From a virus, in the IMG/VR virus record IMGVR_UViG_3300027708_000033, positions 1 to 64,000 of that record: DNA of 64,000 bases, one strand, 5' to 3'. This document shows positions 1,148 to 7,230 of this stretch, piece after piece. The stretch's first letter is position 1. Each line of letters starts with the position of its first letter. The notes beneath the pieces were generated by a model. It was not told the origin of the DNA. It did no database searches and worked only from the letters and a program-made list of their open reading frames with translations. The position numbers and the translations under genes are program-made.

Positions 1148-1176
1148 AAAACACCCCGTATTTCTACGAGGTGTTT
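1148..1176 (-). terminator. intrinsic terminator-like hairpin with GAAA tetraloop
   Basis: Minus strand AAACACCTCGTA-GAAA-TACGGGGTGTTTT. Confidence 0.75.
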
Positions 1177-1179
1177 AAT

Positions 1180-1348
1180 GTGAGTAGATGGGTTGCGTTT
1201 TACCACCAATGCGTCTCCACCAGATTCTCTAGCGCTTACTCGCATACCTGCCGTTAGGTTTTCCACCCAGTTGATTAGACCCGACAGTGCTTTCTCCCTG
1301 TTGGAACAGAAATTCAGCCATACTCCGCTTCAGCCGTCGCTTTTGCGT
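1180..1348 (-). ncRNA. candidate multi-branched structured ncRNA of unknown family
   Basis: Extended -10 (TGtTACATT, 1356-1364) upstream and terminator downstream; several G-U-containing stems that pair on the minus strand. Confidence 0.55.
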
Positions 1349-1411
1349 TATGTCTAATGTAACACGAGCCAGTGACATTTTATGCCAAGTTGTATAACTA
1401 AACCGAAGCGT

Positions 1412-1695: not shown

Positions 1696-1760
1696 AAACA
1701 CCTAGCCTCGCGACTAGGGTGAGGTACATGACCTCAATGCCGCTGGACATGCGTGCATCG

Positions 1761-2104
1761 TGGACCAGCCGGGAATCGAACCCGGGTCCTAACACCGTCT
1801 TTACACTCTTCTACATGCTTAGGCAGATTGTTTGCGACCAGACGTATGACCTGCCAGACCGTCGGACGTTACCACGATTTATAGACTCCGTGGAAAAAGT
1901 CTTGTTTTGTTCTATTTATTTAAAACCTGACTGCCCAGCTAGAACTACTGCTTTGTCAGGGGCCTTAGCGGTGTAGTTAGACTACGCTGCTAGTGCGAAT
2001 GCTGAACGTGAGTTTGCATTTATTGCTTTACCCGATTCAAGAGTACGGGCGTCTCTGCATGCTTCTTTGTAAAGTTAGACATCAGTCGAAAGCCTGTCTA
2101 GCCC
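1761..2104 (-). ncRNA. ssrA: tmRNA
   Basis: 5' GGGCTAGACAGGCTTTCGAC, 3' CCCGGGTTCGATTCCCGGCTGGTCCA; acceptor stem with G3-U alanine identity pair; tag frame 2017-1982 encodes ANSRSAFALAA-stop; TATAAT at 2125-2130. Confidence 0.95.
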
Positions 2105-3120: not shown

Positions 3121-3447
3121 CTACCGGTTACGACTTGGAGGAATCCCTAGGTTTACCGGTATGCCACGTCTGATTTTGCGTCTATCATTATCAGTGGTCC
3201 CTCCCCAGATTCCAATCAAATCAGGTCTGTCTATCGCGTAGAGCATACACTCTGGCTTAAACTCACAGCTAGCACAAATCTGCTTGGCTTCACGTTCGTA
3301 GGTGTAAGTGCCGCGATTTGGTTTTCGTGAGCCGTCTGGCGCTTCGTCTGGAAAGAATGCATCTGGAAAGGTCTCTGAACAAACTGGTGGATTTTCAGAA
3401 TCCAGGAACTTAGGGTAATCAAATCCATTTAGGTTGTCGTTTTCCAT
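3121..3447 (-). CDS. whiB: WhiB family transcription factor
   Basis: C...PDAFFP...AKQICASC...C...GIWGG motif. Confidence 0.92.
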   Translation of the reverse strand: MENDNLNGFDYPKFLDSENPPVCSETFPDAFFPDEAPDGSRKPNRGTYTYEREAKQICASCEFKPECMLYAIDRPDLIGIWGGTTDNDRRKIRRGIPVNLGIPPSRNR

Positions 3448-4094: not shown

Positions 4095-4551
4095 CAGGAT
4101 TTTTTGCCTTTCCATCTTTATCTGCGTAAACCAAGCCAATAGAGTCTCCGACTTTTAACTCGATAAAAGAAACTCCAGTCTGAGACGGGTACCAGTGTGA
4201 TTTTACGTTTAGGTCGTTGCTTCCGTGTTTCTCAAACAAAGTCCATTTCCAGTCAATGTCTTTACAGGATTTTAGCTTAGGAAGTTTGTTTACTTGACAG
4301 ATTGCTTTACCTAGTTCTTTACCAAAATCAAGGTAGTCAATTTTTAGTGTCGTGTTACTGAGCAAGTCAATCGCTTTTACTTTTCCAGAAACAGCAAAAC
4401 ATCTTTCATCTGGAGTCTCGTTTGACAGAGTTCCAAAATCAACATAGACATTTACACAGTTTGCTTTAGGTGTAGTAGTCTCACCTTTAATCCATAGCAG
4501 GCCGAGCAACCCGCATGTGATTGCAGTAGCAACTAATAGTTTACTCTTCAC
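4078..4551 (-). CDS. exported/membrane-anchored protein, possibly DUF4430/transcobalamin-like beta-grasp (B12-binding)
   Basis: GTG 4551 after GGAGGT; N-terminal TM; CVNVYVDFG..C..AIDLL..ICQVN..W.LF..W..SQTG...L..GDSIG pattern; lies directly after pduO. Confidence 0.5.
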   Translation of the reverse strand: MKSKLLVATAITCGLLGLLWIKGETTTPKANCVNVYVDFGTLSNETPDERCFAVSGKVKAIDLLSNTTLKIDYLDFGKELGKAICQVNKLPKLKSCKDIDWKWTLFEKHGSNDLNVKSHWYPSQTGVSFIELKVGDSIGLVYADKDGKAKNPDDNDN

Positions 4552-5116
4552 GGCTACCTCCAGGCACCCATAAGACATCGCCAACCTCACGGTTAGCGTA
4601 CCTAGACAACACAAATAAAAGGTCAGACAGACGATTTAAATACTTTGCAGCCGTGATACTCACACCCTCACCAAAAGAATGGATAGCATTCCAAGTTTCA
4701 CGTTCTGCTCTTCTAGTGACCGTTCTTGCTGCATGCAACTGCGCTGCTAGCGGTGTCCCACTAGGTAGGACAAAACTTCTTAAAACTGGCAAATCTTTGT
4801 TGTAGTGGTCAATTAGTTTCTCTAAACGAGAGACCTGGTCCTCAGTGACTCTAAGTGGAGTAACTTTAGGCTCATCGATTACTGGTGTGCAAAGGTCTGC
4901 TCCAACATCAAACAAATCATTTTGAATTTGAAGCAAAACTTTTTTCACATCGGCGTCTATGCCCATAGACAAGGCAACTCCAATACTGGAGTTAGCCTCA
5001 TCTACGGTTGAGAATGCTTCAAGTCTGGCATCGTTTTTAGAAGTTCTGCTCCCGTCTCCGAGAGAAGTTGTTCCGTTATCGCCAGTCTTTGTATATACGC
5101 TACTGATTACTACCAA
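4541..5116 (-). CDS. pduO: ATP:cob(I)alamin adenosyltransferase (PduO type)
   Basis: VYTKTGDNGTT, TVDEANS, QNDLFDVGADL, ARTVTRRAER, YLNRLSDLLF. Confidence 0.95.
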   Translation of the reverse strand: MVVISSVYTKTGDNGTTSLGDGSRTSKNDARLEAFSTVDEANSSIGVALSMGIDADVKKVLLQIQNDLFDVGADLCTPVIDEPKVTPLRVTEDQVSRLEKLIDHYNKDLPVLRSFVLPSGTPLAAQLHAARTVTRRAERETWNAIHSFGEGVSITAAKYLNRLSDLLFVLSRYANREVGDVLWVPGGSREE

Positions 5117-7159
5117 TTATTTCTGGTTCTCCACAATCAACTTGATTTCACAGGCGTCGGTTGTGCAGTAAGCCTCACCGATACCATCAATGCCGAGTCC
5201 ACCATAGATTCCAGCAAAGTCGATAGGGAACAACTTACCAGCCGCTTCCTCGTACTCTTCCTGAGTAATCTGTGTGTAAGGCATCTGAGGGTAAGTAAAG
5301 TTACCAGATGGCAAGAAGCTCACAGTCTTCAAGCTTCCGTCGTACATGTGGAGAACTTTTTCAACGTCCTTCGACTCAGTCTCAGGGTCAAACGAGATAG
5401 TCACAGATACAGAGTTGTCAGACCAGTAACGCTGGGCAGTAGCTGCAAGGTTCATCTTCTCGTAGATGCTCACATCTTTCTCGGCACGTTTAGCGCTTGC
5501 CTTGATTGGGAAGTACACGACTGAAGTGTGCTCTGGGTTTTCAGATGCCGGCTCAACTACGTAGTTAGCCATCTTAAATAAAGCCAACTGAGGGTCATCG
5601 TTACCGAATCTAATAGCACGGTTGAAGTATTCACCGCCTGGTGACCAGTGCGCGCCAGGAGACTCACCAGCGAGAATAGATACTGTACCAGAAGGCTTGA
5701 CTGTCGTGGTCTTAATTGACTCACGAACACCTAGCCACTCTGAGTAGATGTTGTCGTAGCGCTTTACAACTGCGTAACCCGCATCCATCCAGTTGCGAAG
5801 TTCTGGCAGTCCACGGTTGTCTGCAAAGTTAGCGATACCTGACATTGAGGTTCCGATACGACGGTTACGCTGCATGATTGCGTTAGTCTCTTCCCAGTGT
5901 GTAGGAAGAAGAGTTACTGTCTTGGCGTAAAGATAAGCAAACTTTAGAGTGCGCTTGTAGTCTTCAACATCAGTGTGGCGGTTCAAGTAAGTCTCAACAA
6001 GAGTACACATTTCGTATGACTCAAGGGACTGCTCAGCACACGGGTTGTAACCAGCGATACGCCAGTCCTTGTTGTTAATCGGGTCAGCTAGTCTACCGTA
6101 CTGCTTAGACATGTCTTCCCAAATAACACCAGGCTCACCGTTGCGAATGATGCCATCAACAATTTTTGAGAAGTCGGTGCCGACGTTTACCATGACCGAG
6201 TTGTTGCTCATCCAACCCCAACCAGGGTTCTCTGAATCATAAGAGTTACGGTCTGGAAAAACTTCAGCGTTTTTTAGGTTCAGGAAGTTGTCATCATCAA
6301 TGCGACCAACTAAAAGTTCAGCTGAGCGACGAACGTTACCTGACACTACACAACGACCAATGAGATTTCCAATGTCGGCAATATCGACTGTTGTAAGTTT
6401 TTCGCCACCGCGACCAGTGAAAATCTTCTTGATTACCTCGTGCAATTTGATTAGTGGGTCTGGGCCTGAAGCAGTTCCACCAAAGGTTGCAATAGGTGCA
6501 CCGTAAGGACGAATCTCGCTGTAATCGAACTCTAGGCTTTTTTGCCCCTTGATTAGGAAGGAGTTGATTAGTGCCACAGTAGATTCCTGCCAACCCTCAC
6601 GAGTATCAGGGATAACATAAGTAAATACTTCTTCAAGCGGTGTGTAGATTTCAAAATCCTTGTCCGCACCCTTGTCGTCAAAGCCAACACCGACACCAAG
6701 CATAGAAGCTTCCATAAGGAATGCAAACGGCTTACCTGGGTTCTGCTTGGTCATCTCCAGTGTGGACACGAATGCGCAGTTCTGTAGCGATGCAGAGTTT
6801 TTCTGACGGTTCACAAGGTCAGTACCCATCTGGCTCAAGCCACGACCAGGAGGAGACCACTTCAGGTGGAACAACCGGTCATAAAACTCTTTAGCAGACG
6901 AGGCAGCTTTAGCGTCAGACCAAGGTAGTCGTTGCTGTTTTGCGTAATCTTTCTGTAGCGAGTAAGTTCCGTTAGTTACACGCTCACAAACCTCAGCCCA
7001 AGTTTCCTTAGTGCCATCTTCTTTTTTTCGTGAGTAAGTTCTTAGAAAAGTAATTTCGCCTACAGAGTTTCCTGCAGCATCACGGAAACCAAACGGTGCG
7101 GTCTTCTTTTTGTATTCTGATACGAAATCTTCGCTTAGTTTAAAGGATAAAAATAGCAT
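5117..7159 (-). CDS. nrdJ: class II (adenosylcobalamin-dependent) ribonucleotide reductase
   Basis: PPGRGL, NCAF, GNVRRSAE, NPCAEQSL, TTVKPSGT, C-terminal YCTTDAC; probable start ATG 7159. Confidence 0.93.
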   Translation of the reverse strand: MLFLSFKLSEDFVSEYKKKTAPFGFRDAAGNSVGEITFLRTYSRKKEDGTKETWAEVCERVTNGTYSLQKDYAKQQRLPWSDAKAASSAKEFYDRLFHLKWSPPGRGLSQMGTDLVNRQKNSASLQNCAFVSTLEMTKQNPGKPFAFLMEASMLGVGVGFDDKGADKDFEIYTPLEEVFTYVIPDTREGWQESTVALINSFLIKGQKSLEFDYSEIRPYGAPIATFGGTASGPDPLIKLHEVIKKIFTGRGGEKLTTVDIADIGNLIGRCVVSGNVRRSAELLVGRIDDDNFLNLKNAEVFPDRNSYDSENPGWGWMSNNSVMVNVGTDFSKIVDGIIRNGEPGVIWEDMSKQYGRLADPINNKDWRIAGYNPCAEQSLESYEMCTLVETYLNRHTDVEDYKRTLKFAYLYAKTVTLLPTHWEETNAIMQRNRRIGTSMSGIANFADNRGLPELRNWMDAGYAVVKRYDNIYSEWLGVRESIKTTTVKPSGTVSILAGESPGAHWSPGGEYFNRAIRFGNDDPQLALFKMANYVVEPASENPEHTSVVYFPIKASAKRAEKDVSIYEKMNLAATAQRYWSDNSVSVTISFDPETESKDVEKVLHMYDGSLKTVSFLPSGNFTYPQMPYTQITQEEYEEAAGKLFPIDFAGIYGGLGIDGIGEAYCTTDACEIKLIVENQK

Positions 7160-7230
7160 TCCGCTGCCTTCTGGATAGTGGGTGAAGGACCATCTTATCA
7201 AGTAGGTATATTGCTATTTAGCCAAATACC

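Follow-up and report, generated by a model that had tools for sequence, protein, structure and literature searches.

On the minus strand of IMG/VR virus record IMGVR_UViG_3300027708_000033, positions 1177–1347 encode a structured RNA that sequence comparison places in the manA family (Rfam RF01745), of which it is a divergent and compact representative. The stretch analyzed here, referred to as the window, comprises the first 64 kb of this 127,237-base record, which is estimated to be 76% complete. We read the element as a manA-type RNA made from a stand-alone RNA gene rather than as the leader of a downstream gene, and we assign this joint reading a probability of about 0.8. The element does not represent a new class of RNA: the manA family dates from 2010 (Weinberg et al., 2010, PMC2864571), and one relative of the window copy, L104, passes the Rfam threshold; the adjacency of manA RNAs to transfer RNA (tRNA) genes is also already in print, as described in PMC10832533. 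The novelty is modest and consists of a compact variant that lacks hairpin P7, has non-complementary P8 and P9 loops (L8 and L9) and is tied to transfer-messenger RNA (tmRNA) in probable actinophages, together with evidence that speaks clearly against cis-regulation.

Assignment to the manA family

The window copy can be aligned with the manA model from end to end. Within positions 1000–1500 (501 bases), RF01745 matches 1177–1344 of the minus strand with 39.2 bits and an expectation value (E) of 1.1e-8, and the alignment spans model positions 1–192 of 192. Searched against the whole record, the same model gives E 6.4e-10, and none of 14 control genomes was matched. The only other Rfam match in the 501 bases is a microRNA at E 2.2, attributed to chance. 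An initial annotation of the window, made from its letters, had called this RNA unassigned and had proposed an Rfam search; that search has now been run, and manA is the sole meaningful match. At Rfam gathering thresholds, the whole window returns only tmRNA and tRNA, and neither manA nor raiA; for manA the gathering score is 55.2 bits, which is an operational threshold and not a structural feature.

The conserved junction letters of manA are also present. UG-GCUGAAU, CAGGUA and UUG-GGUA...AA.CC are matched with high posterior probability and are invariant in seven homologues, P9 aligns to the manA P9 consensus GGUA...AA.CC, and the GACG loop of P1 is identical to that of the Rfam consensus and of L104. 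The helix order is common to both: P1 with its GACG loop, P2, P3 with UG-GCUGAAU, a multi-stem P4, CAGGUA ahead of a two-part P8, and P9 with an 11-nucleotide (nt) loop GGUA...AA.CC. Each core helix of manA (P1, P2, P3, P4, P8 and P9) shows pair conservation or covariation in the subfamily, and a phage origin and a tRNA neighborhood are likewise shared with the family.

Pattern scans for relatives yielded one clear locus in IMG/VR and six in metagenome contigs. The relatives comprise one record that appears as L095, L073 and L105, the near-identical pair L102 and L106, L103, L104, and L108, which is cut by the end of its contig. Another of the seven metagenome matches, L107, was judged to be chance, and when the pattern GGTCTAATCAA-N6-GGAAAA was sought in viral_contigs, five of the six loci were coding sequence and only L073 was real. 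The subfamily pattern gave four matches in genome_contigs, all of them chance, so that no host genome or prophage was recovered there, and blastn found no relative of the RNA among INPHARED phages and PLSDB plasmids, where a short manA RNA was likewise unmatched. With RF01745, L104 scores 60.1 bits, which is above the cut-off, followed by L105 (51.4 bits) and L102 (48.9 bits).

Recognition also holds in the reverse direction. A covariance model built from the seven subfamily sequences alone (model R1) recovers eight of nine short manA loci with E from 3.6e-9 to 0.0019, whereas 69 other loci give a single marginal match (E 0.63). On the window itself R1 scores 181.6 bits at 1177–1347, the window sequence being part of its input. 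The short manA RNAs that it recovers, of about 173 nt, belong to large uncultured phages (L080–L096) and score 47–68.7 bits with RF01745. The first pattern scan had given 78 loci; 76 records were searched, with a manA match in 17 and a match over the cut-off in 15. Taken together, the full-model alignment, the junction letters, the helices, the reciprocal recognition and the chain of homologues place the RNA, by sequence criteria, within the manA family.

A fold conserved among seven homologues

The fold was scored as a nine-helix drawing of 51 pairs on alignment A1, which holds seven sequences (the window and six metagenomic relatives). Under this structure 94.2% of the cells of A1 are paired. 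Both partners change with pairing kept in 13 of the 51 pairs, against a mean of 4.7 in shuffled controls and a value of 13 reached in none of 500, although this control overstates the significance because the seven sequences are closely related. When the partners were slid by one to three columns, at most two pairs changed on both sides. RNAalifold, applied to the seven homologues blind to the drawing, returned the same helices and an extra 3-base-pair (bp) mini-hairpin, and the common architecture was found again when each of the six full-length homologues was folded singly. These comparisons are the decisive evidence for the fold.

P1 carries both-sided changes in seven of nine pairs and P2 in two of five, with every cell of P2 paired. 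The outer stem of P8 has two such pairs of five, with three pair types at one position; its inner stem has one, and the two innermost pairs there fail in two and in five of the seven sequences. One pair of P6 changes on both sides (G-C to A-U, in three of seven sequences). P3 is invariant apart from a single one-sided change (U-G to C-G), the variation in P4 is one-sided only, and P9 has a single one-sided change (G-U to G-C).

The stems GAGUA/UACUC, UUUCUGU/ACAGGGA, CUGUCG/CGGCAG, AUGCG/CGCAU, CGCUAGA/UCUGGUG and GGUGG/CCAUC, which the initial annotation had drawn, are all present in the minus-strand sequence. Its 5' hairpin CGC-AAAA-GCG has to give way, since the comparative data favor a longer P1 (1347–1326) with a GACG loop. 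Its GGAAA hairpin keeps the GGGU/ACCU stem and loses the outermost U-A pair, which fails in four of seven sequences; the 5' base of that pair, U87, pairs in the mini-hairpin that carries the loop CUAAUCA. In the RNAalifold structure this loop is closed by a 3-bp stem (columns 75–77 with 85–87) of G-C or G-U pairs. A pseudoknot between L3 (CCAA) and UUGG found no support: the letters are invariant and P8 and P9 already use them for pairing, and the sole variable position yields G-U or U-U.

The minus-strand fold has a free energy of −66.5 kcal/mol (z −2.97), equaled by none of 200 shuffles. The plus strand also folds stably (z −2.26, with 2 of 200 shuffles as good), so energy by itself cannot settle the strand. 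Seven G-U pairs across five helices are compatible with the minus strand only; the initial annotation had likewise noticed G-U pairs peculiar to this strand. Table 1 lists the coordinates of the RNA, its helices and the surrounding features.

Table 1. Features of the manA-type RNA locus and of its surroundings in the window
Feature	Positions	Strand	Description
manA-family RNA	1177–1347	−	P1, then a P2-closed junction carrying P3, P4 (with P5 and P6), P8 and P9
P1 hairpin	1326–1347	−	CGC/GCG outer and AGC/GCU inner pairs, GACG loop; columns 9–30 of A1
P2 closing helix and all enclosed	1182–1325	−	GAGUA 1325–1321 with UACUC 1186–1182
P3	1289–1318	−	GC/GC base, conserved UGGCUGAAU junction, 7-bp stem UUUCUGU/ACAGGGA
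P4	1248–1287	−	CUGUCG/CGGCAG; encloses mini-hairpin P5 and hairpin P6 (GGGU/ACCU, loop GGAAA)
Loop CUAAUCA	1272–1278	−	columns 78–84 of A1; invariant in 7 of 7 homologues
P8	1209–1245	−	outer AUGCG/CGCAU, internal loop, inner stem of 5–7 bp, variable loop
P9	1187–1207	−	GGUGG/CCAUC, 11-nt loop UAAAACGCAAC
Intrinsic terminator	1148–1176	−	stem of 11–12 bp, GAAA loop, U tract; −16.7 kcal/mol
30-codon open reading frame (ORF)	1229–1321	−	inside the RNA; not a gene
54-amino-acid (aa) ORF	931–1095	−	downstream of the terminator
Putative extended −10	1356–1364	−	TGTTACATT; letters only
46-aa Lys-rich ORF	1412–1552	−	between tRNA-Trp and the RNA
tRNA-Trp (CCA)	1624–1695	−	
Phage tmRNA	1758–2104	−	99.9 bits; tag ANSRSAFALAA
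WhiB-family regulator	3121–3447	−	PF02467, E 4.3e-14
PduO-type cobalamin adenosyltransferase	4541–5116	−	
B12-dependent ribonucleotide reductase	5117–7201	−	

Stand-alone gene or cis-acting leader

The RNA is followed by a constitutive terminator. The GAAA-loop hairpin proposed in the initial annotation is found at 1176–1148 and coexists with the manA fold in the minimum free energy structure, and a consensus terminator scan does not call it. All six full-length homologues have such a terminator 5–10 nt past P2, with stabilities of −16.7 to −24.3 kcal/mol and with differing sequences. When the 3' arm of the terminator is removed in these six homologues, the 5' arm stays unpaired and does not invade the fold. 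The genes that lie beyond differ as well: the first one past the terminator encodes 54 aa in the window, a 54-aa membrane protein in L102, 138 aa in L104 and 134 aa in L105, all unrelated. Among 25 pattern matches to the 54-aa protein of the window in viral_contigs, none was confirmed as a relative. Between the terminator and the 54-aa ORF there is also a promoter-like TTTACC-18-TACAAT (9 of 12 matches) at 1150–1121.

The chief alternative is a cis-acting riboswitch or leader in which a ligand-bound fold controls termination at 1148 and thus the 54-aa ORF (1095–931). This is how the family has been classified, as the Rfam type of manA is Cis-reg and a likely riboswitch located in 5' untranslated regions (UTRs) is described by Weinberg et al. 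(2010, PMC2864571); a terminator directly after the RNA and an ORF on the same strand behind it would suit such a device. However, neither a fold-competing expression platform nor a consistent downstream gene was found: fold and terminator can form together in each of the six full-length homologues, no antiterminator pairing is seen, the downstream genes are unrelated among relatives, and the promoter-like site separates the terminator from the ORF. Related manA RNAs moreover lie between two tRNAs, at a distance of 6–8 nt on either side, and such a position offers no protein gene to control. We therefore consider a riboswitch unlikely at this locus; the non-competing terminator, the differing downstream genes and the tRNA/tmRNA setting argue for a stand-alone RNA. 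The claim of the initial annotation that this is a stand-alone phage non-coding RNA agrees with the compensatory changes, the non-conserved ORF and the non-competing terminator in every complete homologue.

Slightly less probable still is a passive module that processes or stabilizes tRNA/tmRNA transcripts, in which the RNA would serve as a structured 3' cap and spacer and be otherwise inactive. In relatives the RNA is indeed the last element, with a tRNA or tRNA-like structure ahead of it and a terminator behind. Yet a simple stabilizer would need neither a conserved nine-helix junction nor the invariant loops CUAAUCA and UAAAACG, the junction letters are common to distant manA RNAs, and in the window the 46-aa ORF separates the RNA from the tRNA.

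The RNA is non-coding, and the 30-codon ORF within it is not conserved as a coding sequence. A small protein made from this ORF (1321–1229) or from its 49-aa extension is very improbable, even though the frame is open, is preceded by GGAG 1 nt ahead of its ATG at 1321 (as the initial annotation saw) and is open in relatives also, though only because the sequence is conserved. The stop shifts to codon 26 in L104 and is read through to 48 aa in L103, and the codon changes between the window and L102 are mainly non-synonymous (nine against two synonymous; three, six and four at codon positions 1, 2 and 3). A normal ribosome-binding site would need a wider gap between GGAG and ATG, and helices P2 and P3 bury both elements. 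Conservation of the ORF at the codon level was thus looked for and not seen. The ORF had been described as the only one; its length of 30 codons stands, whereas an upstream ATG extends the frame to 49 aa and a 41-aa GTG ORF overlaps it. Equally improbable is a raiA-motif RNA or some other unrelated new class, which drew on a resemblance of short words noted in the initial annotation: raiA gives no match at E up to 10 on 1000–1500, whereas manA aligns over its entire model and the reciprocal model search confirms manA.

Several observations count against a stand-alone manA-type RNA gene. With regard to the family, the window copy stays below the manA cut-off (39.2 against 55.2 bits), the L103 copy is not listed with RF01745 at E 0.01 or better, and R1 fails on the short manA RNA L096. 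With regard to the fold, P3, P4 and P9 show invariance or one-sided changes and no both-sided change, 7 of the 13 covarying pairs sit in P1, a hairpin whose alignment combines two loop types, and the seven sequences are close kin with a mean column identity of 89%. At the 5' side, the window holds 144 copies of the pattern TGNTANNNT where 157 would be expected, which is no better than chance, and a promoter consensus scan does not call the element at 1356–1364. Downstream, the 54-aa ORF lies on the same strand about 50 nt past the terminator, and with an ORF so near, regulated read-through is compatible with the sequence. Finally, the loops L5, L7, L8 and L9 of the preprint discussed below were mapped onto the Rfam helices by inference from the Rfam consensus.

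The 5' side and the tRNA/tmRNA neighborhood

The initial annotation had given the RNA its own promoter as well as its own terminator. The terminator holds, and the extended −10 TGTTACATT exists as letters, with a frequency of its pattern that does not exceed chance. In relatives the extended −10 is absent, and a tRNA or a tRNA-like element abuts the RNA. A tRNA ends 3–4 nt ahead of P1 in L102, L106 and L108. In L103, L104 and L105, the approximately 70 nt directly 5' of the RNA contain a tRNA-like element that is called neither by ARAGORN nor by the Rfam tRNA model; it has three arms, namely a 6-bp acceptor stem, one hairpin and a T arm with the loop UUCAAGU/UUCGAGA, and is followed by ACA. 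Hairpins with UGGAUAG-type loops precede it. This element may be a processing signal that sets the 5' end of the RNA.

The neighboring genes named in the initial annotation, a tRNA and a tmRNA, are both present (tRNA-Trp at 1624–1695 and tmRNA at 1758–2104, minus strand). All six relatives likewise have an upstream tmRNA in the same orientation, with the near-identical tag AESRSAFALAA. Among the short manA loci examined, six of eight have a same-strand tRNA 0–8 nt away, on both sides in L080 and L089. Some of the manA RNAs of L080–L094 sit between tRNA-Pro and tRNA-Thr, 6–8 nt from each. An RNA flanked by tRNAs, or by a tRNA and a terminator, would be a gene product freed by tRNA processing and termination, and not a 5' UTR.

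The tmRNA link does not extend to the manA family as a whole: among 17 manA-bearing IMG/VR records, which are fragments, tmRNA is over the cut-off in one, the subfamily record. In records without manA it is over the cut-off in 2 of 50, both of them proviruses. These two (G060 and G063) have a tmRNA match of about 290 bits at one end and a partial match at the other, a pattern suggestive of integration into the ssrA gene of the host. Complementarity between the invariant loops or junction of the RNA and the phage tmRNA reaches 4–6 nt, no better than in shuffles, and loop–tmRNA complementarity is not conserved among six tmRNAs.

A comparable neighborhood is found in another actinobacterial mobile element. 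The Bifidobacterium breve megaplasmid pMP7017 is described as carrying a tmRNA at 120,876–121,272 and a manA motif at 122,656–122,830, within the tRNA region of the plasmid (PMC10832533). Compared by this description, it shows the tmRNA–tRNA–manA arrangement with about 1.4 kb from tmRNA to manA, on a plasmid rather than a phage. A similar genomic niche is known from GOLLD and ROOL, phage and prophage RNAs for which PMC12286853 gives function as unknown and which it describes as often lying near tRNA islands and forming RNA-only cages. Their way of working may be like that of manA-type RNA. They differ from it in length (500–800 nt and more) and are unrelated in sequence and fold, and no Rfam match to them was found here.

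Within the window, the 46-aa ORF stands between the tRNA and the RNA. The product of this ORF is one of a set of Lys/Gly-rich proteins of 46–47 aa (MAKGKGG...KRPKVFDAIKRRLVTK) with homologues in L102, L103, L106 and L108, where the ORF lies upstream of the tmRNA; it belongs to no Pfam family. A 6-bp hairpin with a UUCG-type loop (1415–1398) overlaps its stop codon. Between the tmRNA 3' end and tRNA-Trp, about 5 nt before the tRNA, there is a terminator-like hairpin (1701–1718, minus strand) of 7 bp followed by TGTTTTGGTT, which would be odd if tRNA and tmRNA share a transcript. A promoter-like TTTACT-18-TATAAT occurs at 2154–2125, near the tmRNA.

Contigs assembled by Logan from four lake or freshwater metatranscriptome runs were compared with positions 900–2200. 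Window-identical contigs cover the tmRNA at 1796–2093 in three lake-water runs (X1–X3), and in the fourth (X4) the contig of a relative, with 10 differences, covers 1347–1564. No contig in the four runs covers 1177–1347; contigs of this kind cannot show absence, and the result is neutral on expression. The host can be approached through the WhiB gene, since the WhiB family presumably marks an actinobacterial host. The phage is thus probably an actinophage, and its host, unlike for the manA motif, would not be a cyanobacterium or a gamma-proteobacterium.

Reduced periphery compared with other manA RNAs

The subfamily differs from the manA consensus mainly at its periphery. The consensus has hairpins P5, P6 and P7 within P4, whereas the subfamily has a 3-bp P5 and a 4-bp P6 without P7. 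Its P3 has a longer stem of 7 bp and a shorter internal loop, and the Rfam alignment misplaces this helix. Unlike the consensus, the subfamily RNA is always followed by its own terminator and is linked to tmRNA. The P5–P7 module is also reduced in manA members that score over the cut-off (L080, L081 and L091), and it is treated here as a variable and not a defining feature of the family.

In the Rfam consensus, the loops of P8 and P9 are complementary (aCUguA with uacAgu). All nine distinct short manA sequences keep a 4-nt L8/L9 complementarity, which covaries from AGGA/UCCU to GGGA/UCCC. In the subfamily, the longest Watson–Crick match between L8 and L9 is 1–2 nt in six of six sequences. The short manA RNAs, which lie among tRNAs or are followed by a terminator, have two traits of their own, the 4-nt complementarity and two hairpins in P4. 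In L080–L094 (IMG/VR, CheckV completeness 2–39%) these RNAs measure 173–175 nt, and both hairpins of the P4 domain carry UUAGCGG-type loops. Several of these loci are on small contigs scored as 2–8% complete, which implies very large phage genomes.

These differences may coincide with loops that have been implicated in assembly. According to a recent preprint, kissing loops L5–L7' and L8–L9' join manA RNAs into pentamer-based decamers and a 60-mer cage, homo-oligomers of five other manA RNAs were seen by cryo-electron microscopy, and manA variants have a common core with differing peripheral helices (bioRxiv 10.64898/2026.07.01.735769). If the loop mapping is correct, the subfamily would lack both reported assembly interfaces. 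By analogy with these RNAs, the subfamily probably has another mode of assembly, or none, because P7 and the L8/L9 complementarity are lost.

Proposed mechanism and implications

We propose that 1177–1347 of the minus strand is expressed as a separate, highly folded RNA some 170–200 nt long, belonging to a phage cluster of RNA genes that comprises tmRNA, tRNA and the manA-type RNA. Its 3' end would be set by the terminator at 1176–1148. Processing of the abutting tRNA or tRNA-like element would define the 5' end in relatives; in the window, where a small ORF has been inserted upstream, this end might come from the weak extended −10 or from read-through followed by processing. The RNA would act in trans as a folded particle and not by switching the next gene, and its conserved core would be the working part, by analogy with the manA RNAs that form RNA-only, pentamer-based assemblies.

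Since its description in 2010, the manA motif has remained an orphan among riboswitch candidates, and according to a 2026 preprint it forms RNA-only cages. The present locus offers a clear case of a manA-type RNA as a terminated gene of its own within a tmRNA/tRNA cluster, and it extends the family to probable lake actinophages. A trimmed variant without the reported self-assembly loops would be a useful natural comparison for core function. It is possible, although we hold this tentatively and consider it the less probable case, that the subfamily is a natural minimal manA core that has shed the cage loops and gained the invariant CUAAUCA loop. If so, the manA core would have a job of its own, independent of cage formation, possibly the binding of a translation or tRNA-processing partner through the invariant loops, and a comparison of the subfamily with manA RNAs that do form cages would then allow core and assembly functions to be told apart.

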